From positions 1-16,850 of the forward strand of contig JBBQPO010000127.1 in assembly GCA_038217285.1 (NCBI GenBank): DNA of 16,850 nt, written 5' to 3'. This document shows positions 4,857 through 16,036 of the stretch, piece by piece. The stretch's first letter is position 1; each line of letters begins with the position of its first letter. Both the position numbers and the translations under genes were made by a program. Below the pieces are notes generated by a model, which worked only from the letters and a program-made list of their open reading frames with translations, was not told where the DNA came from and did no database searches. The DNA is from Chthonomonadales bacterium. GTDB lineage: Bacteria; Armatimonadota; Chthonomonadetes; Chthonomonadales; Chthonomonadaceae.

Positions 4857-6230
4857 TTATGGGATGTGCGGTTCCGGCTGGGAAGCAGCGGCAGTCTCTT
4901 CGACGAACCGTTCTTCCGGACTGGGATTGATCGGAGGATCGCGGCGCAGGAGATAGGCGGCGAAGGCGGCGGCGAAAAAGAGCCCGGCAGCGGTGTAGAG
5001 GCCCGGCTTGAAGTCGCCGTGGGACCACGTCTTGAGTTTGCCCATAAGGAACGGACCCAGAAACCCTCCCAGATTGCCGACCGAGTTGATGAAGGCGATG
5101 CCTCCCGCCGCCGCCCGCGCGCCCATGAGATTGGTGGTCAGCGCCCAGTAGGAGCCGGCGGCGCTGCGTTCACCCAGGACGTTGAGGGAGAGTGCGACGA
5201 CGGTCAGGCCAGCGGTGGGGGCAAAGACGCACGCAAGAAATCCGAACCCTGCTACGATATATCCGAACATCACATGATACCGACGTGCTCCGGTTCGGTC
5301 CGAATGGGCGGCGGCAAAGACCATCGCGATCGCTCCGACGAGGCCGGGGATGCCGGTCATCAGCACGACTACCGGGTCTGACCAGAGACCGCCGCTCCGA
5401 AACTTGAGCAGCGCCGGCCCGAAAAAGCCCACGGCATTTCCGGCTGTCGCGGTCAGTATGAAGATCAGGCAGAGATGTAGGATTCGGGGCTCCATGAGCG
5501 CCACCCGGAAGGAGAGATGTTTCACCTGCTGCCCGGTGCGCTCCTCCTCGATAAGGCTCTCGGTGATCCACACCTTCTCTTCCGGCGACAACCACCCGAC
5601 ATCCGTGGGACGATCCGGCAGAATCTTCAGGACGACAAAAGCCAGCAGTACGGAGGGCACCCCCTCCACCAGAAACAGCCACTGCCAGCCGGCCAGGCCG
5701 CCAATACCGTTCATCTTGAGCAGCAGAGCGCCCAGAGGTGTGCCGAGTAAGCTGAGTATGCCGTTGAGCGCGAGAAAACTCCCGAGAACGCGTGCACGCG
5801 CCCTGCCGGGTACCCAGTAGGTGAGGTAGAGTAGGATTCCCGGATAGAACCCTGCCTCCGCCAGACCTAGCATAAAACGCAGCGAATAGAAGCTCATGGG
5901 GGTGTGAACGAACATCATCGACGTTGAGATCGCCCCCCATGTCAGCATGATGCGCGCGATCCAACGGCGCGCGCCGACGCGCTGCATGATCAGGTTACTG
6001 GGAACTTCGAGCAGAAAATAGCCGATGAAAAAAATGCCAGCGCCTAATCCGTAAACCTCATCATTGAAGTGAAGATCCTTCTGCATCGTGAGCGCGGCGA
6101 TACTGACGTTACCGCGATCCATGAGATTAAAGAGGTAGAGAATGGCAAGAAACGGTATCAGCCGCATCAGAACCTTTTTGACGATAGCATTCTCGATGGT
6201 CTGATCACGCGACGGCTCCAGTACGGTCAT
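4857..6230 (-). CDS. MFS transporter, anion:cation symporter family (TtuB/phthalate-permease-like)
   Basis: Motifs DRGNVSIA, GIFFIGYFLLEVPSNL, GARRWIARIM, LRFMLGLAEAGFYPG, GWQWLFLVEG.P and AFINSVGNLGGFLGP; about 12 hydrophobic segments. ATG 6230 has AAAGGG upstream. Confidence 0.93.
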   Translation of the reverse strand: MTVLEPSRDQTIENAIVKKVLMRLIPFLAILYLFNLMDRGNVSIAALTMQKDLHFNDEVYGLGAGIFFIGYFLLEVPSNLIMQRVGARRWIARIMLTWGAISTSMMFVHTPMSFYSLRFMLGLAEAGFYPGILLYLTYWVPGRARARVLGSFLALNGILSLLGTPLGALLLKMNGIGGLAGWQWLFLVEGVPSVLLAFVVLKILPDRPTDVGWLSPEEKVWITESLIEEERTGQQVKHLSFRVALMEPRILHLCLIFILTATAGNAVGFFGPALLKFRSGGLWSDPVVVLMTGIPGLVGAIAMVFAAAHSDRTGARRYHVMFGYIVAGFGFLACVFAPTAGLTVVALSLNVLGERSAAGSYWALTTNLMGARAAAGGIAFINSVGNLGGFLGPFLMGKLKTWSHGDFKPGLYTAAGLFFAAAFAAYLLRRDPPINPSPEERFVEETAAASQPEPHIP

Positions 6231-6599: not shown

Positions 6600-8666
6600 A
6601 TGCAAAAATCTCTGCGTGGAATCTCTGGAGTATTGACGGGGCTGATCGTCCTTGGAGTGCTCGCTGGCCTGGTGGCGGCAGCGAAACGATTTCGTGTGGA
6701 GTCGCATAATCGGCGCGTCGAGATCGCGCTGGAGTGGCAGGAGGTGACCCAACTGGCGCAGGCCACCACCGGTCATCCGATCCCCGATCTGCTCCGCGAA
6801 TTTCATACTCAGGGCGTCAGTGCGCTTGTTCTGCAAGAGGAGACTCTGACGACTCTGGAACAGAGCGGTGCCCTGCGTCTGGAACGCGCCGCGCAGCCCA
6901 ACGGCGTTGTCGCCACCTATGTCTCCCTCTCCTCCCCCGAACTCTTACAACGCATCAAAACGGCCCTGACGGCGCGGAATATCGTGCTTGCCACAAGCCC
7001 TCTGCCTCTGACCGCAATCACTCCGACCGTATTTTCGGCCTCAAGGATGGACGACGGACGTCCCAAAGCAGACCTCTTTGTGCCGATGGACTATGCAAGT
7101 CTGCGGACGCTGGGCCTCGGTCTGCCACCGGAAGGTGTGGCGGCTGCGCGAAACGCCGGGCTGCGCATTGCGGGGCGCATCGGCAACTTTGCGGGCGTCA
7201 GCGAGAGCAGCGCGCAGAATGTGGTGCGCAACCTGGTCCAGCAGGGCGCGACGACCGTGATCTTTAGCGGCGAAGAGGCGCTCGGGTATCGCGGCCTGGA
7301 AAAACAGGTCGCCAACCTGTTCCGCTCCCCGAACGCACCCGCCGTGCCGCACAAAGACGACGAGACGCCTCTGCCACCACTGGGTATCACGTATGGTGCG
7401 GTCGAGTTCGGCAAACAGAAGGGCGACGAGAAGCTGAGCGCGTCCCTACATGGAGATTTTGTGCGCGTACACAGCATCCAGGCGGCGGAGATGGGTCAGG
7501 TCGACGAGGAGGAGGCGGTCGAACGGTTCGAGAAAGCTGCCCGCGAACGCAACATTCGCTTCTGCTATGTGCGGCTCCTCACCTATGCCGGCAAAGATCC
7601 GGTCGAGGACAACGTCAAGTTCCTGGGCAAGATCGCGCACGGGATGCACCGAGGCAGCGTCCTGACAGGCGGCGACCTGAAATTTGGAGCCGCCCGACCG
7701 TACGAAGAGACAGGAGTCTCTCCCCTGCTCTTCGCGCTGATGGGCCTCGGGGTGGCGGCCGGAACCGTCTGGATGCTGAGGGCGGCGCTGCCGCTCCCCG
7801 ACTCTGCGGCGGCCCTGCTGCTGGGCGTTCTCGGGGTGCTCTGTCTGCTCTGCGCGTGGCGGCTGGACGAGACGGGGCGAAAGCTGGTCGCCCTGCTGGC
7901 CGGTATCGTTTTCCCGACGGTCGCCTGCCTGCGGACCTTTCCGCGCCAGGGAACCTCCGTCCGCTCTCTTGCGCCAAACGCCTGCCTGAGCGCGGCCATT
8001 GGCGGTATCGTATGGGCGAGCGGCATCACTGCCATCGGCATTATCTACGTCGTCGGACTTCTGGCTTCGCGCCCGTTCATGGTCCACGCCAGCCAGTTTC
8101 TGGGCATCAAGGCGCAGCACGCCGTGCCGCTGCTGCTGGTCGCACTGGTGGCGGTGGCAGGCGGCGTGACGCTCCCGGAAGAGACCTGGGTGCGCTGGAA
8201 GGCGCGCGCCGCCGGACAGTTCCGCGCCGCTATGCAGGAGCCCGCACGCTTCGGCCTGTTGATTGTCGGCATCGTCGCGCTGGCCGCCATTATGTTGATC
8301 GTCGCGCGCACCGGCAACGACGCCGGGGTCGGTGTCTCCGGAGCGGAGCTTAAAGGCCGCGCCATTCTGGACCGTATCCTGCCCGCCCGCCCCCGTACCA
8401 AAGAGTTCCTGGTCGGGCATCCGCTCTTTATTCTCGGTCTGGCCTGGTGGTGGCGCGGTCGCCGTCGCCTCGGCCTGCCCTGTCTCGTGTTCGGCAGTCT
8501 CGGGCAGGTCTCCCTGCTCAACACATTCTGTCATATCCATACGCCGCTCGTGATCTCGGTCTGGCGGGATGGGATCGGGCTCGTCCTGGGCATCCTGCTC
8601 GGAGCCGCCGTCTTCCTACTGGTGGAGCGAGTGATGCCGCCGCCGCGCGAGAGGAGCGAGGCGTGA
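6600..8666 (+). CDS. DUF5693 family integral membrane protein (csaB-associated)
   Basis: N-terminal TM plus R.RVE..NRRVEI, then VEFGKQKG, VRVHSI, KAARERNIR, a C-terminal multi-TM region with QFLGIKA, RTGN, RPRTKEFLVGHP and GQVSLLNTFCHIHTPL. Directly upstream of csaB, as is typical for this family. Confidence 0.85.
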   Translation: MQKSLRGISGVLTGLIVLGVLAGLVAAAKRFRVESHNRRVEIALEWQEVTQLAQATTGHPIPDLLREFHTQGVSALVLQEETLTTLEQSGALRLERAAQPNGVVATYVSLSSPELLQRIKTALTARNIVLATSPLPLTAITPTVFSASRMDDGRPKADLFVPMDYASLRTLGLGLPPEGVAAARNAGLRIAGRIGNFAGVSESSAQNVVRNLVQQGATTVIFSGEEALGYRGLEKQVANLFRSPNAPAVPHKDDETPLPPLGITYGAVEFGKQKGDEKLSASLHGDFVRVHSIQAAEMGQVDEEEAVERFEKAARERNIRFCYVRLLTYAGKDPVEDNVKFLGKIAHGMHRGSVLTGGDLKFGAARPYEETGVSPLLFALMGLGVAAGTVWMLRAALPLPDSAAALLLGVLGVLCLLCAWRLDETGRKLVALLAGIVFPTVACLRTFPRQGTSVRSLAPNACLSAAIGGIVWASGITAIGIIYVVGLLASRPFMVHASQFLGIKAQHAVPLLLVALVAVAGGVTLPEETWVRWKARAAGQFRAAMQEPARFGLLIVGIVALAAIMLIVARTGNDAGVGVSGAELKGRAILDRILPARPRTKEFLVGHPLFILGLAWWWRGRRRLGLPCLVFGSLGQVSLLNTFCHIHTPLVISVWRDGIGLVLGILLGAAVFLLVERVMPPPRERSEA

Positions 8667-9829
8667 GCCTGCCGATGCGCACAACTTCGGAGGTTCGGGT
8701 CGCGCTTTCCGGCTATTACGGCTGTGGCAACGCCGGCGATGAGGCGGTTCTGGCAGGGATTCGAGAGGCGTTCGCGCGTCAAGCTGGGGATCGAGTGCGC
8801 CTTGTCGTCTTCTCGCAAGACCCGGCGACCACCCTGCAGATGCACGGGCTGCCAGCGGTGCAGCGTATGAGCCTGACTGCCCTGCGCTCCACGCTGAAGC
8901 AGAGCGACCTGCTGATCTCCGGAGGAGGCAGTCTGCTGCAGGACACCACCAGCATGCGCTCCCTCCTCTACTACCTCTGGGTCGTACGTCTCGCTTATGC
9001 GCAGCGTGTGCCGGTGATGTTCTACGCGCAGGGCCTCGGCCCTTTCCGCCGTCCGCTCTCCCGAGCCCTGGTGCGTCTGGTCGCCAATCGCGCCGACTAC
9101 ATCACCGTGCGCGACGAACCCTCCCTCCGCTTGCTGACCACGCTCGGCGTCCGCCGTCCGCCCATCGAACAGACCGCCGACCCCGCTTTTGCCCTGTCAC
9201 CGGCCGCCTCGGAGGCCGTGGAGGCGCTGTTCCAGGCCGAAAATCTGCCTTCGGACGAGCCTCTGCTCGGGGTGGCGCTGCGCCCCTGGGGCGGATCAGG
9301 CGAATCCCCGCTCGATTCCTACGCCGCTCTGCTGCTCGATCTGCAGCGCCGCACCGGCCAGCGTGTCGTGCTGCTTCCCATGCAGTCGCCCGGTGATGTC
9401 GTCTTCGCAGAGACGGTCGCCGCGCTTACCGGCAATCCTGCCGCCTTTCCTGTGATTCGCCGAATCTATCCGCCCGCGGTCCTGCTCGGCCTCGTCGCGC
9501 GGATGCAGGCGGTCGTCGCCATGCGTCTGCACACGCTGATCTTCGCCGCGCGTACTGCGGTACCGCCCTTCGCGCTCGCTTATGACCCCAAAGTGGAGAA
9601 CCTTATGCGCGGCCTCGATCTGGCGGACTCCCTGGAACACTGGCGTGGATTCGAACCTGCCGAAGTGGGCGAGCGCGTGGCGGCCCTGCTGGTAGAACGC
9701 CCGGCCCGCGTCATCGCCCTCCGCGCCCGCACCGCCCACCTGGAACGTCTGGCTCTCCGCAATGCCGACTGCGCCCTGTCCCTCCTTGATGCCCGCCCAC
9801 CCGAGAGGCGTTCCGCTTCTAAAACCTGA
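8663..9829 (+). CDS. csaB: Polysaccharide pyruvyl transferase CsaB
   Basis: Motifs SGYYGCGNAGDEAVL, LISGGGSLLQDTTS.RSLLYYL, YAQGLGP, ITVRDEPS, TADPAF, AMRLHTLIFA and YDPKV. GTG start overlaps the DUF5693 stop (GTGA at 8663-8666), with GAGGAG RBS. Confidence 0.93.
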   Translation: MSLPMRTTSEVRVALSGYYGCGNAGDEAVLAGIREAFARQAGDRVRLVVFSQDPATTLQMHGLPAVQRMSLTALRSTLKQSDLLISGGGSLLQDTTSMRSLLYYLWVVRLAYAQRVPVMFYAQGLGPFRRPLSRALVRLVANRADYITVRDEPSLRLLTTLGVRRPPIEQTADPAFALSPAASEAVEALFQAENLPSDEPLLGVALRPWGGSGESPLDSYAALLLDLQRRTGQRVVLLPMQSPGDVVFAETVAALTGNPAAFPVIRRIYPPAVLLGLVARMQAVVAMRLHTLIFAARTAVPPFALAYDPKVENLMRGLDLADSLEHWRGFEPAEVGERVAALLVERPARVIALRARTAHLERLALRNADCALSLLDARPPERRSASKT

Positions 9830-10995: not shown

Positions 10996-11021
10996 GACGC
11001 ACTATTAGGAGGGAATGTTCC
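10996..11021 (-). promoter_or_regulatory. ECF-sigma-type promoter for the DUF948-like gene
   Basis: Minus strand reads GGAAC-attccctcctaatagtg(17)-CGTC-aa, about 80 nt upstream of ATG 10917. Confidence 0.65.
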
Positions 11022-11068
11022 GTTTTTCGCCGCTCGCTCTATCGCGCTGGCGCCAGGCTTGAAACAAG

Positions 11069-11094
11069 GGAACCCTGCCGCAGACTTCGTCGTC
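11069..11094 (+). promoter_or_regulatory. ECF-sigma-type (autoregulatory) promoter
   Basis: GGAAC-cctgccgcagacttcgt(17)-CGTC-tg, about 57 nt upstream of the ECF sigma ATG at 11152. Confidence 0.65.
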
Positions 11095-11151
11095 TGCCAC
11101 ACAACGGCGCAGTTTTCGCGCCCAAGCCATTTTTGCGATAGGAGATACTTC

Positions 11152-11784
11152 ATGTTGCCAGTCCACGACGAGGGTGCAACAGGCGGGCCGCAGTTGCACT
11201 GCGATACCGCCGCAGAGTTCGAGCAGTTGTTTCATCGCTCGTACACCCGTGCTTACAATGCCGCCTATCGGTTGATGGGCAACACCAGTGATGCAGAAGA
11301 CCTGACGCAAGAGGCTTATGTCCGTGTTTGGGCGGCGTTTGATCGCTACGACCGCACCCGCCCCTTCGAAGGATGGCTGTTTCGCATTCTTTCCAATCTG
11401 GCGATCGACCGCTGGCGACGCAGCGCCGGGATGACGGTCTGCTCCCTGGATGCGGCAACCTCCGGCGGCGGCTCTCGCGCTCGGGGTGGGCGCTTCCCCG
11501 ACAATGATGGAGGAGCCTCTCTGCTCTCCTGTCTGGCCGATGAGCGGCCCAGTGTACTGCCCGAACAGTCGCTGATGCGCGCCGAAACAGGCCGTAAAGT
11601 TCACAACGCTCTCTCCGCCTTGCCAGGTGATTATCGGCAGGCCGTCGTGATGGCGGACATCAAGGGCTATAGTTATGAAGAGATCGCGAAGCATGTGGGC
11701 TGCCCGGTCGGAACCATTCGCAGCCGTCTGCATCGAGGCAGGCAGTTGCTGCGGCAAAATCTGATCCAACTTCAGGGAGACTGA
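11152..11784 (+). CDS. ECF RNA polymerase sigma-70 family sigma factor
   Basis: Region 2 (AYRLMGNTSDAEDLTQEAYVRVW...FEGWLFRILSNLAIDRWRR) and region 4 (LSALPGDYRQAVVMADIKGYSYEEIAKHVGCPVGTIRSRLHRGR). AGGAGA RBS before ATG 11152. Confidence 0.95.
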   Translation: MLPVHDEGATGGPQLHCDTAAEFEQLFHRSYTRAYNAAYRLMGNTSDAEDLTQEAYVRVWAAFDRYDRTRPFEGWLFRILSNLAIDRWRRSAGMTVCSLDAATSGGGSRARGGRFPDNDGGASLLSCLADERPSVLPEQSLMRAETGRKVHNALSALPGDYRQAVVMADIKGYSYEEIAKHVGCPVGTIRSRLHRGRQLLRQNLIQLQGD

Positions 11785-11789
11785 TTCTT

Positions 11790-12305
11790 ATGAGCGATAC
11801 CAACGGAGAAGATCCACTGCTGCGCACAGCGCAGGTCCAGCGGGATCGATCCCTGATCGCGGCAGACGCGGAGCAGAGTCGCCCGCAAGGGACGAAAAAC
11901 GAGCGCGACATCGCTTTCGATAGCGCGGTCAGTCGGGCCGCACACAGAGATGTCGCCGAGTTGGTGGCGCGAAACGAGGCCTACAACAAGTCTCAAGCCG
12001 ACATAGTGGCCACGAACCGGGCGAACTACGCCGCGCTAGAGGCCCGTTCCTTACGCGCAAACCTGCTGGCAGAACGCAAAAGGGCTTCCAATGCGAATTT
12101 CGGACTGGGGATCGTTTCTGTACTGCTGCTGGCAGGACTGATCGCCGGAGGCGTCTGGTACTTCTCCTCCCAGAACAACGCCAACACGACGGCATCGGCA
12201 GGTGTTGTCGCGGCATCGGCATCGACTACAAAATCGAGCGATGTCTCCGCCCCTGACAGAACGCCTGGAACGATCAATGTCCCGGCCACTTCTGGCAATC
12301 CGTAG
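11790..12305 (+). CDS. Single-pass membrane protein of unknown function; candidate anti-sigma factor
   Basis: Starts 5 nt after the sigma stop with a GGAG RBS. Charged helical N-terminal ~100 aa, one TM (FGLGIVSVLLLAGLIAGGVWYF) and a Ser/Thr/Ala-rich tail. Confidence 0.7.
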   Translation: MSDTNGEDPLLRTAQVQRDRSLIAADAEQSRPQGTKNERDIAFDSAVSRAAHRDVAELVARNEAYNKSQADIVATNRANYAALEARSLRANLLAERKRASNANFGLGIVSVLLLAGLIAGGVWYFSSQNNANTTASAGVVAASASTTKSSDVSAPDRTPGTINVPATSGNP

Positions 12306-12438
12306 GTTTACCCGACTCTCAAACAGAGCATACGGGGTTAATGAGGGGACAGTCGCTCCCCACGCATATCGGCAACACAGCGGGAAGGCGCGACACCAGA
12401 TCGGCCTTCCCACTGTTTCGATCAAGGACCAAAACATC

Positions 12439-14247
12439 ATGAGACCATCTCACTATACTTCTCACCACTCCCCCCGAAAGGCGGGATCCTCCCCGGCTCT
12501 CGGCACAATCTGCCGATCCGGTCTTGGCATCGGCGCACTGCTGCTCTTGAGCGCAGGCAGTGTCGCGGCCCAGCGTATCAATGTGACCGTCAACGGCTCC
12601 CCCGTGGAGTTCGCAGGGATGGGGCCGATGCAGGTGCAGGGCCGCACCCTGGTTCCTGTCCGCGGGGTGCTGGAGAAACTGGGCGCGGAAGTGGCCTGGG
12701 TGCCTTCGACCCGCTCCGTCATCGCCAGTACGCCCAGCATGGATATTCAGCTCCACCTGGGAGACAATCAGGCGACGGTAAACGGTAAATCGGTCAAGCT
12801 GGATGTGCCCGCGCAGGAGATCAACGGTCATACGATGGTTCCCCTGCGGTTTCTGGGTGAGGCTCTGGGCGGCACCGTGAAATGGGACGATGTGACCCGA
12901 ACCGTCACCATCGTCACCAATGGGCAGACAACGCCGAACGGGCAGGGCAATAATGGCCAGGGCAACAATGTGCAGGGTAATAACGGGCAGGGTAACTCGG
13001 TCACCGGGGGCCCAACGCGTACGTCGCCTGGAAGCAGCGCCGAACCTAAGATCGCGGCGATAACGTTCAAGGCCGACGACTGGTACGGATGGCTGCAGCC
13101 CGGACATAGCGTCAATATCGAGCTGACCGGAACGCCGCGTGGGGAAGCGACCTTTCGCATACCGGGACTGACCGACGCGCTGCCGATGAGGGAGACGGAG
13201 CCAGGCAAATATGTGGCCACCTGGACGGTTCCGACCACGAAAGTGTTGCAGTTAAAGGACGCCTCGATCCTTGGAGAGCTCAAGATCGGAGATAAGAGCG
13301 CGCCTGCTGTGCAGGCCACAAGCCACCTCTCCGTCGATTCGAAGCCGCCGACCATCCTGGACCGCCTTCCGGAGCCGAATACTCGCGTGAACTCGGATCG
13401 GCCGAACATATCCGCCGTCTTCGAAGATGCGGGCAGCGGCGTCTGGCCGCCGTCGATGCGCCTCCTCGTGAATGGCCGCGATGTCTCTAAGGAGGCCAGA
13501 GTGACCGCCAACTTCGTCAGCTACACGCCTGCCGAATCTCTGCCTCCCGGTGAGACGACCGTCGTCCTCGCGATCAACGATAAAGCCACCAACGAAGCCA
13601 GAGTAGAATGGAAGTTCGATGTTCTCTCTGCGAACACGACTGCCGGAATCCGCAGCGTGAAGCAGAACGCCGGAAAGACGCTGGAGCCAGGGGATGTCCT
13701 GCACGTGGAGATGGACGGCGTTCCGGGCGGAATCGGGACGTTCAGTCTGGGCAACATCAAAGGAGTGAAGCTCACGGAGTCGCCCGCCGGCCACTATGCG
13801 ACCGACTACACCATTCGCAAGGGCGACGATGTCCAGAACGCCACCCTCGCCACGAACCTGACCCTGCCCGACGGCCAGAAATTCACCCGGCAGGCCGACA
13901 AGGCCGTTTCCGTCAATACCGGAAAGCCGACGGCCCCGGTGATCGTCTATCCTAATAAGACGGATGCACTGGACAGCCCGCTGGTCATTCGCGGCAAAGC
14001 CAACCCCCATGCGCAGGTGCGGGTCAAGGTAGACTACTCCAGCAAACTCCTGGGCCTGCTGCCAGTGCAGGGGACGGCTGCGGATACGATTGTGACGTCA
14101 GACAAGAACGGCAACTGGAAGACAGACCCGATCGACCTGAACAATCTGCTCTCCAACCGCAACGTGGACTATACCATCTCCGCGACCGCAATCAGCGCGA
14201 CGGCAGAGAAATCGACCCCGACTCAGTTCCGCTTCCGCCTGCGCTAA
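12439..14247 (+). CDS. Secreted/surface protein: copper amine oxidase N-terminal ('stalk') domain plus several Ig-like beta domains
   Basis: Signal peptide (...GIGALLLLSAGSVAAQ), then INVTVNG...GRTLVPVRGVLEKLGAEVAW...ATVNGKSVKLDVPAQEINGHTMVPLRFLGEALGGTVKWD (stalk domain) and beta-rich C-terminal modules. AAGGA RBS before ATG 12439. Confidence 0.85.
   Translation: MRPSHYTSHHSPRKAGSSPALGTICRSGLGIGALLLLSAGSVAAQRINVTVNGSPVEFAGMGPMQVQGRTLVPVRGVLEKLGAEVAWVPSTRSVIASTPSMDIQLHLGDNQATVNGKSVKLDVPAQEINGHTMVPLRFLGEALGGTVKWDDVTRTVTIVTNGQTTPNGQGNNGQGNNVQGNNGQGNSVTGGPTRTSPGSSAEPKIAAITFKADDWYGWLQPGHSVNIELTGTPRGEATFRIPGLTDALPMRETEPGKYVATWTVPTTKVLQLKDASILGELKIGDKSAPAVQATSHLSVDSKPPTILDRLPEPNTRVNSDRPNISAVFEDAGSGVWPPSMRLLVNGRDVSKEARVTANFVSYTPAESLPPGETTVVLAINDKATNEARVEWKFDVLSANTTAGIRSVKQNAGKTLEPGDVLHVEMDGVPGGIGTFSLGNIKGVKLTESPAGHYATDYTIRKGDDVQNATLATNLTLPDGQKFTRQADKAVSVNTGKPTAPVIVYPNKTDALDSPLVIRGKANPHAQVRVKVDYSSKLLGLLPVQGTAADTIVTSDKNGNWKTDPIDLNNLLSNRNVDYTISATAISATAEKSTPTQFRFRLR
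12937..12996 (+). repeat. 4 x 15-bp in-frame tandem repeat encoding N(G/V)QGN
   Basis: AACGGGCAGGGCAAT / AATGGCCAGGGCAAC / AATGTGCAGGGTAAT / AACGGGCAGGGTAAC in the linker after the stalk domain. Confidence 0.9.
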
Positions 14248-14276
14248 AAACGTTCCGGCGAAGCCAACCGGGGCAG

Positions 14277-14311
14277 AAAAAACCTTCACAGCGCGATCCG
14301 CGCAGTGAAGG
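14277..14311 (-). terminator. Hairpin with A-run on its left side (minus-strand-oriented terminator)
   Basis: AAAAAA-CCTTCAC-A-GCGCG-ATC-CGCGC-A-GTGAAGG, giving a stem followed by a U-run on the minus strand. Confidence 0.55.
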
Positions 14312-14326
14312 CCGTCTGGACCGCTA

Positions 14327-14398
14327 TGTGACGTATTTCACGGGGAACTGGTGACCGGGTTCACAGTCCATACGGTCTCTTAAACGAACAGATAGAAT
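14327..14398 (+). promoter_or_regulatory. Promoter-like block: two GTGA-N6-TCAC boxes, an overlapping ECF-like GGAACT-N16-GTC motif and a TAGAAT -10 hexamer
   Basis: TGTGA-CGTATT-TCACG (14327-14342); GGTGA-CCGGGT-TCACA (14350-14365); GGAACT (14344-14349) with GTC at 14366; TAGAAT at 14393-14398. Confidence 0.45.
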
Positions 14399-14404
14399 GG
14401 GCGA

Positions 14405-14557
14405 AAAGTCTAAGTAGTTGTCTCCCTCCGGAGACGATGCACTGTTGCATCTACCTTGGCGAAGCGGGAGATCCGCTTTGCGGTCGGGTGCTGCATCATT
14501 GCGCCCGGCCAGTACAGAGCCGCAGTCCTTTATAAGGACTGCGGCTCTGTACGTTTT
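14405..14557 (+). ncRNA. Candidate structured small RNA (unknown family)
   Basis: Consecutive hairpins, several using G-U pairs that work only on the + strand, between a promoter-like block and a 19-bp stem plus T-run, in a gap between convergent genes. Confidence 0.45.
14512..14557 (+). terminator. Perfect 19-bp hairpin plus T-run (terminator or REP-like palindrome)
   Basis: GTACAGAGCCGCAGTCCTT-TAT-AAGGACTGCGGCTCTGTAC-GTTTT; it also lies 38 nt beyond the DUF1501 stop on the opposite strand. Confidence 0.75.
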
Positions 14558-14590
14558 CGCTGCGGAGAGAGGCCCCGATTGAGGGCAAGG

Positions 14591-16036
14591 TCAGGCGAGG
14601 ATCGGCTTGACGATCGTGCCATAAACATCCGTGAGACGGTAGTAGCGCCCGCCGTACTGGTAGGTCAGTTTCGTGTGGTCGATGCCCATAAGGTGCAGAA
14701 TGGTGGCGTGCAGGTCGTGGACATGCACTTTGTTCTCGGTCGCGTGCCAGCCGAACTCGTCGGTCGCGCCATGCACCAGGCCGCCTTTGATGCCGCCTCC
14801 CGCCATCCACATCGTGAAACCGAACGGATGATGTTCGCGCCCATCGGAGTTTTCGGCGGTCGGCGTGCGTCCGAACTCGCCGCCCCACACTACCAGGGTG
14901 TCCTTCAGCAGCCCCCGCGCTTTCAGGTCTTTGAGCAGCCCCGCGATCGGTTTGTCGGTGGCGGCGCAGTTCTCGCGCAGACCGTTTCGCAGGTTGCCAT
15001 GCTGATCCCAGAGCTGGCAACTGCTGCGTGTGCCGGTCTGCGTATGGTAGACCTGGACCATGCGAACGCCGCGCTCCACCATACGCCGCGCCAGCAAACA
15101 CTGCTTGCCGAAGATCTCCGTCGTCTTGTCGTCCATCCCGTAGAGTTTTTTGGTCTCCGCGCTCTCGCCATCGGTATTGAAGGCCTCCGGCGCTTCCGTC
15201 TGCATGCGGTATGCCAGCTCGAAGGCGGCGATGCGGGCGTTCAACTGACTCTGCTCCGCGTGACGGTGACGGTGCAGATCGTTCAACTGCCGCAGGGTAT
15301 CGAGCTGATCCCGCTGCCGATCCGAGGAGAACAGCGGATTCTTCAGATTGGCGATAGGATTGCTCAGATCGTTGACGAGGGTGCCCTGATAGGCGGCGGG
15401 AAGGAAGGAAGAGCTCCAGAGCGGCGCGCCCTGCGCAGGCTGTGCAGGGCTGATGACGAGGAAGCCAGGCAGGTTCTGGTTCTCGCTGCCGAGGCCGTAG
15501 AGCAGCCACGAGCCGAGACTGGGCCGGGAGAACGCCTGCTCCCCCGTGTTCATCTGCAGGCATGCGCCGTTGTGGTTGATATTGTCCGCGAACATCCCGC
15601 GGATCACGCATAGATCGTCCACGCAGCCACCGACATGCGGGAAGAGCTCGCTCACCTCGGTGCCTGCCTGCCCGTATTTTTTGAAGGTGAACGGCGAGCC
15701 CAGCAGATTGCCCGTCTTGGTGCGCTCCAGCGAGGGCTTGGCGAACGGCAGCGGCTTGCCCATCTCCGCGGTCAGGCGCGGCTTCGGATCGAAGGTGTCC
15801 ACATGGGAGGGTCCGCCCGACATGAAGAGAAAGATAACGCGCTTCGCGCGCGCCGGGAACATCGGCAGCTTCGGCGCCAGCGGATTGGCGTCCGCAGAAA
15901 CGGCGCCCGCTTTCGCCTCCTCGGCCAGAAGCCCCGCCAGCCCGAGCATTCCAAAACCGTTCGCGAACCCCTGCAGCATCTCCCGCCGCGAATAGTAGGC
16001 CGGCAGCCGATCGTGTTCCGGATCGTTTCGTTTCAT
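14591..16036 (-). CDS. DUF1501 domain-containing protein (Tat-exported, sulfatase-like superfamily)
   Basis: Tat-like SRREML...GFGMLGLAGLL, then AKRVIFLFMSGGPSHVDTFDPKP, RPSLGSWLLYGLGSENQNLPGF, CLLARRMVERGVR.VQ, WDQH, TLVVWGGEFGRTP, GREHHP, WMAGGGIKGG..HGATDEFG, HVHDLHATILHLMG and RLTDV.G. Confidence 0.95.
   Translation of the reverse strand: MKRNDPEHDRLPAYYSRREMLQGFANGFGMLGLAGLLAEEAKAGAVSADANPLAPKLPMFPARAKRVIFLFMSGGPSHVDTFDPKPRLTAEMGKPLPFAKPSLERTKTGNLLGSPFTFKKYGQAGTEVSELFPHVGGCVDDLCVIRGMFADNINHNGACLQMNTGEQAFSRPSLGSWLLYGLGSENQNLPGFLVISPAQPAQGAPLWSSSFLPAAYQGTLVNDLSNPIANLKNPLFSSDRQRDQLDTLRQLNDLHRHRHAEQSQLNARIAAFELAYRMQTEAPEAFNTDGESAETKKLYGMDDKTTEIFGKQCLLARRMVERGVRMVQVYHTQTGTRSSCQLWDQHGNLRNGLRENCAATDKPIAGLLKDLKARGLLKDTLVVWGGEFGRTPTAENSDGREHHPFGFTMWMAGGGIKGGLVHGATDEFGWHATENKVHVHDLHATILHLMGIDHTKLTYQYGGRYYRLTDVYGTIVKPILA

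Follow-up and report, generated by a model that had tools for sequence, protein, structure and literature searches.

Positions 1-16,850 of contig JBBQPO010000127.1 from the Chthonomonadales bacterium assembly GCA_038217285.1 (the window) were analysed. Between two convergent genes, one for a Cu_amine_oxidN1 protein and one for a DUF1501 protein, it carries what is probably a non-coding RNA gene in its own right, with a plus-strand product of about 140 nt that would be transcribed independently and in a sigma-dependent manner from its own promoter of the extracytoplasmic function (ECF) type. We put the probability of this reading at roughly 0.6. Judged from sequence, the element is a sound new small RNA (sRNA) candidate of an ordinary kind, located between convergent genes in one uncultured genus of Armatimonadota. 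An earlier note on the window had proposed an independently transcribed, structured regulatory RNA on the plus strand here, and this core proposal is supported by the comparison with related genomes, with transcription as its predicted part.

RNA structure, conservation and strand

The gap between the convergent stops is 343 nt long (14248-14590), as the earlier note had given it, and all the stems quoted there are present in the sequence. The predicted RNA and its parts are as follows.

14416-14557, plus strand: predicted sRNA of about 142 nt (covariance model R1, 160.3 bits; both ends predicted)
14419-14436, plus strand: P1, 7-bp 5' hairpin, UGUCUCC / GGAGACG with loop CUCC, arms TTGTCTCC/GGAGACGA; formed in 7/7 single-sequence folds
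14437-14458, plus strand: linker of 22-24 nt, 58-75% pyrimidine, with a CUACCUYGG-like end; constant in length, variable in sequence
14459-14481, plus strand: P3, 9 bp with loop GAGAU, GCGAAGCGG-GAGAT-CCGCTTTGC; stem and loop almost invariant
14482-14510, plus strand: P4, 10 bp with a 9-nt loop, GGTCGGGTGC-N9-GCGCCCGGCC; abuts P3 and P5 without spacer
14512-14558 (stem 14512-14552), plus strand: P5, terminator stem of 19 bp with a 3-nt loop and the tail GUUUUC (GTTTTC)

The 5' end is placed 6-8 nt after the GTC of the -10-like block, at about 14416-14419 just before P1, and the 3' end at the terminator tail. A length of about 140 nt (about 14416-14557) is more likely than the 150-180 nt proposed before.

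Folding of 14377-14557 with RNAfold gave -97.4 kcal/mol on the plus strand, compared with -56.4 +/- 4.5 for shuffled sequences (z -9.2, 0/200 as good), and -82.5 on the minus strand (z -7.7, 0/200). When the terminator was removed (14416-14511), the plus strand still folded to -52.9 (z -6.1) and the minus strand to -41.3 (z -3.3), again with 0/200 shuffles as good on either strand; the plus strand is then 11.6 kcal/mol more stable than the minus strand. The earlier note had staked its proposal on a fold that beats shuffled sequence after removal of the 19-bp hairpin, and it survives that trial because no shuffle matched the terminator-less plus-strand fold.

Seven homologous sequences could be compared, from the same syntenic site in 4 of the 5 genomes of one Chthonomonadaceae genus and in 2 metagenome contigs. 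The RNA and the 90-nt promoter block are two islands of constraint between decayed spacers, with mean pairwise identities of 73% and 66%, respectively; the two spacers, which are unalignable, have 51% (behind the upstream stop) and 39% (ahead of the DUF1501 stop). The adjoining gene ends have 79% (upstream gene) and 89% (DUF1501). RNAalifold on the seven sequences revealed four helices, P1, P3, P4 and P5, and each sequence also folds alone into these four. Pairing was found in 95.1% of 307 helix cells compared with 89.2% in shuffles, none of 500 of which reached the observed value, and slid controls were paired at only 32-46%. Compensatory change was detected in 16 of 44 pairs (0/500 shuffles had as many). 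By helix, the compensatory pairs were 2/7 in P1, 0/9 in P3, 2/10 in P4 and 12/18 in P5. P1 is paired in 89.8% of its cells and P4 in 97.1%, with seven G-U cells to two A-C cells in P4. In P3, six of the nine pairs never vary; there are three single changes, of which two are kept as G-U or U-G and one breaks the pair.

Over all helices there are 20 G-U cells versus 6 A-C cells, and 16 versus 3 outside P5. This excess, together with the energy difference between the strands, favours a functional RNA on the plus strand, and the argument of the earlier note from G-U pairs is sound in this respect, the three G-U pairs in P3 and P4 being real. No open reading frame (ORF) keeps its frame and start across the seven sequences.

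Other details of the earlier structure held only in this genome. Its second hairpin, GATGCA-CTGT-TGCATC at 14436-14451, is formed here by part of the linker, yet it is paired in only 59.5% of cells over the seven homologues, which 116 of 500 shuffles equal. The closing stem is likewise present here, but over the homologues it is 68.8% paired without covariation and clashes with P3; a shorter closing stem of 4 bp is 77.8% paired, also without covariation. The anti-Shine-Dalgarno-like loop CUCCCUCC does occur in this genome, as the 5' arm and loop of P1, but differs in the other six sequences. In place of this loop, the conserved part predicted to be single-stranded is the pyrimidine-rich linker of 22-24 nt.

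P5 has the two features of an intrinsic terminator in this genome, a GC-rich stem (19 bp) and a U-run (GTTTTC). With the DUF1501 stop 38 nt away, P5 probably serves both convergent units. One X2 DNA contig spans 14277-14650 with six differences, one at 14531 in the P5 loop and five in 14553-14597; as a single contig it was given no weight.

Probable ECF-type promoter and the neighbouring sigma factor

In the alignment of the block upstream of P1, GAACA and GTC are invariant at fixed spacing in 7/7 sequences.

14385-14391, plus strand: -35-like block CGAACAG of ECF type with AAC core (GAACA, 14386-14390, invariant in 7/7)
14407-14413, plus strand: -10-like block AGTCTAA with GTC core (GTC, 14408-14410, invariant)

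The pattern GAAC-N18-GTC runs without indels through all seven sequences; the spacer varies in sequence and is fixed in length, and the pattern is expected by chance 0.0065 times per 100 nt on one strand. According to passages in PMC8103513 and PMC6648896, ECF promoters are marked by AAC in the -35 element and by (C)GT(C) in the -10 element; the motifs GGAACTT and GTC are recognised by sigma-E, which drives MicA, RybB and MicL. The block upstream of the sRNA has AAC at -35, GTC at -10 and ECF spacing, which is motif evidence only.

An ECF sigma factor gene is present about 3 kb upstream, and its own promoter has the same architecture.

11068-11096, plus strand: promoter of the ECF sigma gene, GGGAAC-N17-CGTCTG; AAACAAGGGAACYCT-N13-CGTCTGC invariant in 5/5 orthologous loci
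11152-11784, plus strand: ECF sigma factor gene (TIGR02937 sigma70-ECF, 108.3 bits versus cut-off 42.9; Pfam Sigma70_r2 and r4_2)

This promoter also reads GAAC-N18-GTC in 5/5 loci, with the same spacing as the sRNA motif. It has the look of a classic autoregulated ECF promoter (window 11000-11160), and the sigma gene starts with ATG at 11152 behind the ribosome-binding site AGGAG. Further conserved blocks upstream of the sigma gene are TATGCAGTTGACGCA and the palindrome GGAATGTTCC.

Genome-wide, GGAAC-Nx-CGTC peaks at N17, which is equivalent to the sRNA spacing (172 occurrences versus 88-137 at other spacings), and GGAAC-N17-CGTCT was observed 58 times versus 14.5 expected, with 9-30 for scrambled controls. 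The sRNA-like form GAACAG-N16-GTCWA has 11 occurrences in the genome, of which by eye only C129:11270 is promoter-like; it precedes a glycine-rich small protein and not a sigma gene. Because this lone promoter-like site precedes no sigma gene, the pattern points to no specific sigma factor. At C129:11270, GGGAACAG-N15-CGTCTA stands about 60 nt before the glycine-rich ORF (MAESRTQNEIDNAV...GGAGGAVTGAVA), and it looks like another ECF or general-stress promoter.

A scan of 14000-14800 found no sigma-70-like promoter. Judged by eye, the conserved bases fit neither a class II CRP arrangement nor a sigma-54 promoter, and TAGAAT at 14393-14398 is not conserved in the alignment.

TGTGA boxes upstream of the predicted promoter

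Two inverted repeats of the CRP/FNR type lie before the -35-like block, 23 bp apart from centre to centre.

14327-14342 (core 14328-14341), no strand assigned: box 1, TGTGA-CGTATT-TCAC-G, about 83 nt before the predicted start
14350-14365 (core 14351-14364), no strand assigned: box 2, GGTGA-CCGGGT-TCACA, 20-21 nt before the -35-like block

GTGA-N6-TCAC occurs three times in the window versus 0.21 expected, and 0/200 shuffles reach three. Both halves of box 2 are kept in 6/7 sequences; for box 1, the alignment by eye shows the left half GTGA in 5/7 and the right half TCAC in 4/7. The 14-mer core is not enriched genome-wide (86 versus 79 expected), and the perfect TGTGA-N6-TCACA occurs 11 times versus 3.1 expected. 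Six of these 11 perfect sites have no overlapping ORF of more than 110 aa, and four of them by eye are followed by TTGACA/TATAAT-like hexamers. The genome has one other clean tandem pair (C36:19305-19341, 22 bp apart), which by eye is flanked by the end of a UvrC-like gene on one side and by the start of a downstream gene on the other.

We identified a CRP-family protein in the genome, a 251-aa ORF with the recognition helix ARETVSR (G000 contig C2, about 5370-6160; L053 968-1761), and this helix resembles the RE..R helix of E. coli CRP. A perfect TGTGATGTCAGTCACA is located 23-70 nt before the start of this gene, which points to a regulator that controls its own gene and to a functional TGTGA-N6-TCACA regulon in this genome of Armatimonadota. 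A CRP-type input to the sRNA gene through boxes 1 and 2 is plausible.

Gene cassette

The genes flanking the gap and the first hairpin within it are as follows.

12202-14247, plus strand: Cu_amine_oxidN1 protein gene, 681 aa, whose stop opens the gap
14284-14310, plus strand: hairpin after the Cu_amine_oxidN1 stop, CTTCAC-A-GCGCG-ATC-CGCGC-A-GTGAAG, read from the sequence
14591-16036, minus strand: DUF1501 gene, whose stop closes the gap

The element stands in the same context across all seven sequences: ECF sigma gene, an unannotated ORF, Cu_amine_oxidN1 gene, element and convergent DUF1501 gene, as far as the contigs reach, because the sigma gene is outside the stretch for the two metagenome contigs and the G002 and L048 contigs end before DUF1501. 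The ORF between the sigma gene and the Cu_amine_oxidN1 gene is a putative anti-sigma factor. A strong hairpin follows directly after the upstream stop in 7/7 loci, with unrelated sequences in the alignment; in this genome the upstream transcription unit probably ends at the hairpin 14284-14310. This hairpin has a T-run on the minus strand (AAGGTTTTTT, 14302-14287), by which it resembles, in this genome, a terminator of transcripts that run leftward through the sRNA gene; by eye the T-run was not seen in the other homologues.

At 6600-9829 of the window, genes for a DUF5693 protein and a polysaccharide pyruvyl transferase (PS_pyruv_trans) stand side by side, a pairing which suggests modification of a secondary cell-wall polymer. 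This pair and the Cu_amine_oxidN1 protein fit a cell-envelope theme for the neighbourhood.

Points against the reading and alternative explanations

Several observations weigh against a separate ECF-dependent sRNA gene. The comparison has only seven sequences, from one genus-level clade and one syntenic site, and since they are closely related the shuffle statistics are inflated. Twelve of the 16 compensatory pairs lie in the terminator, as any terminator would show, and P3, being without compensatory change, could owe its conservation to a DNA palindrome. The P5 stem is kept in 7/7 sequences, but its tail is weak in several homologues, with only 1-6 U in the next 9 nt. The linker varies in sequence among homologues. 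A crude RNAduplex scan, in which the first 45 nt were paired with each of 24,348 Shine-Dalgarno-bearing starts, gave inflated and featureless energies, with no shuffled control, and identified no mRNA target. The ECF-type motif class is real in this organism yet generic. Moreover, the promoter flanks differ (CGAACAG and AGTCWA for the sRNA, GGGAACYCT and CGTCTGC for the sigma gene), and the assignment to the neighbouring sigma factor therefore depends on proximity and spacing. Finally, G004, the one remaining genome of the genus (73% complete), retains the sigma cassette, and the model detects no sRNA in it.

One alternative keeps the independent sRNA but lets it act by binding a protein, as sponge or platform, through the invariant P3-P4 and not by pairing through the linker. 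Sequence-specific recognition would suit the almost invariant stem and loop of P3 (GCGG-GAGAU-CCGC), the largely invariant P4 and the variable linker, and genes for CsrA and Hfq are both present in the genome. Csr/Rsm sponges carry many GGA loop motifs. The candidate has a single GGA-like one, as only the P3 loop G-GAGAU-C is similar, and no candidate partner was identified; we consider protein binding an unlikely, if serious, account.

Somewhat less probable is that the element is the 3' untranslated region (UTR) of the operon of sigma, anti-sigma and Cu_amine_oxidN1 genes, reached by read-through and having no promoter of its own, perhaps as a processed sRNA or a stability element. In 7/7 loci the same gene directly precedes it and runs in the same direction, the operon has its own ECF-type promoter, and read-through is plausible because the post-stop hairpins are mostly without a plus-strand U-run. 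A UTR would however have no need for the conserved 90-nt block with its invariant GAACA/GTC and two boxes between hairpin and RNA. The spacer adjoining the stop is unconserved (51%), and the G004 orthologue of the gene has no such element behind it, both of which speak for the separate gene.

It is improbable that there is no functional RNA at all and that the region is a stack of terminators or insulators with DNA palindromes (P3 and the TGTGA boxes) for binding proteins. P5 would then be a plain terminator that holds most of the covariation, P3 a near-perfect 9-bp DNA palindrome, and the TGTGA boxes are DNA sites in any case. On the other hand, the G-U excess and the compensatory changes in P1 and P4 indicate RNA, two of the three changes in P3 retain wobble pairing, and regulatory DNA sites at the 3' ends of two genes would regulate nothing.

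A functional transcript of the minus strand, either the DUF1501 3' UTR or an antisense RNA, is very improbable. That strand also folds well, with or without the terminator, and has the terminator with T-run at 14302-14287 in this genome, but it is 11.6-15 kcal/mol less stable, the G-U to A-C ratio is against it, the T-run was not seen by eye in other homologues, and the promoter-like motifs read on the plus strand. The idea that the region encodes a small protein can hardly be held: a 32-codon ORF (MHCCIYLGEAGDPL...) and a 54-codon ORF overlap it in this genome, yet none with frame and start is kept in all seven sequences, G001a and G001b have no plus-strand ORF of at least 25 codons over P3, linker indels shift the frame, and the substitutions are pair-compensating.

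Possible function of the sRNA

As a separate sRNA gene, the element would work in the following way. Under stress of the envelope type, an ECF sigma factor would start the RNA at the promoter CGAACAG-N16-GTCTAA. The first candidate for this regulator, by proximity and promoter spacing only, is the ECF sigma factor encoded 3 kb upstream in the conserved cassette of sigma, putative anti-sigma and Cu_amine_oxidN1 genes, and the two CRP-type boxes may supply a second input. The transcript would end at the 19-bp hairpin, which would also close the DUF1501 gene, and the 5' hairpin P1 and the three 3' helices would give it stability. The linker is the candidate seed, and it could pair with the purine-rich ribosome-binding regions of target mRNAs for trans-acting post-transcriptional control. 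Such regulation would parallel what sRNAs do in the sigma-E response of E. coli.

A more specific picture, which we offer tentatively and hold to be unlikely in its entirety, makes the RNA the non-coding arm of an envelope module of ECF sigma and anti-sigma factors in Armatimonadota. Its promoter would integrate the ECF stress signal with a cAMP/CRP-type nutritional signal received through the two upstream boxes, the invariant and coaxially abutting P3-P4 would be a docking platform for protein, and the fast-evolving linker would do the pairing.

If the ECF dependence is true, the division of ECF stress responses into a protein arm and an sRNA arm would extend well beyond Proteobacteria. To a phylum that has been little studied and of which few members are cultured, the candidate would add a new RNA family that Rfam lacks, and its readable parts (promoter, candidate regulators and structure) are all in hand. 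The cassette of sigma factor, anti-sigma factor, Cu_amine_oxidN1 wall protein and sRNA could be a compact system for heterologous testing. Its practical reach is small, since it is confined to one uncultured genus.

Comparison with known RNA families

Rfam 15 (4227 models, with the gathering threshold for membership) gave no match at gathering score in the whole window, in agreement with the earlier note, which could name no known family. With E values up to 10 only hairpin look-alikes appeared, such as mir-2059 with 23.7 bits versus 90, and the six homologous loci had no match at E <=0.1. The best near-miss of sRNA type was Pxr (RF01812), with 19.7 bits versus a gathering score of 80 (E 0.33), and the element is not a member of it; Pxr is similar in being a string of stem-loops of similar total length.

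In general plan the candidate is like the sigma-E-dependent MicA, RybB and MicL of Enterobacteria: a short structured RNA that ends in a terminator hairpin and stands behind a predicted promoter whose -35 has AAC and whose -10 has GTC (passages of PMC6648896 and PMC8103513). It would likewise be the non-coding arm of an ECF envelope-stress regulon, in a genome with an Hfq gene. It differs from them by being in Armatimonadota and linked to an ECF sigma cassette, and by its pair of CRP-type boxes upstream and its run of three abutting 3' helices; no homology to MicA, RybB or MicL was found among the Rfam 15 models, none of which matches the candidate in sequence or structure.

Two other groups of sRNA are comparable. 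ErsA of Pseudomonas and GsrN of Caulobacter are sRNAs that depend on ECF or general-stress sigma factors. The likeness is in the alternative-sigma promoter that would drive a trans-acting sRNA; homology was looked for by the Rfam scan only, with no match. Spot 42 and CyaR are encoded by CRP-regulated sRNA genes, and the candidate shares with them TGTGA-N6-TCAC boxes upstream of an sRNA promoter. Unlike theirs, its boxes are at about -60 and -83 of an ECF-type and not a sigma-70-type promoter, and there is no homology. Literature searches on small RNAs of Armatimonadetes and on non-coding RNA of Chthonomonas brought up no sRNA of the phylum by title or abstract.

Distribution

The element is single-copy in its own genome. 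In BLAST over 61 genomes, G003, G002 and G001 (with two contigs), all of the same genus, were the only ones to show clear homologues. Covariance model R1, run on 42 genomes from the family and 68 from the class, showed the same distribution and did not detect the element in the remaining 63 of the class. Five loci came out of a pattern scan of metagenome contigs, of which two are full-length homologues (127.6 and 126.2 bits). The other three cover only the 24-26-nt P3 string and were set aside. BLAST matches of 35-52 nt in G011, G005 and G025 were also rejected, as L013 and L014 had no match to the covariance model at E <=1 and L025 reached only 6.0-6.1 bits (E 0.85-0.9). So was a model match of 32 bits in G062, which overlaps the 3' end of a 113-aa ORF and its terminator; by eye this ORF end resembles the tail of a PII-type protein. 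Plasmid and phage collections contained no similar sequence, and Cu_amine_oxidN1 orthologues in 15 further loci of the family were followed by no match beyond terminator-like hairpins.

In G004 (C550; L065 3291-3460), a terminator hairpin and then a co-directional gene of 211 aa stand behind the Cu_amine_oxidN1 orthologue, in place of the sRNA and DUF1501. The best DUF1501 match in this assembly is 69% identical, compared with about 89% for true orthologues. Because another gene stands downstream and no DUF1501 orthologue exceeds 69%, the sRNA and this DUF1501 gene appear to be either missing together or unassembled in G004.

The metagenome-assembled genome (MAG) G001 has two syntenic copies of the cassette with the sRNA, on the separate contigs C480 and C536 (L031, L029, L050). 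Their Cu_amine_oxidN1 proteins are 78% and 71% identical to that of the window, and C536 has an extra Cu_amine_oxidN1 ORF of 227 aa. With a MAG contamination of 3%, the double copy may come from two co-binned populations or be a real duplication.

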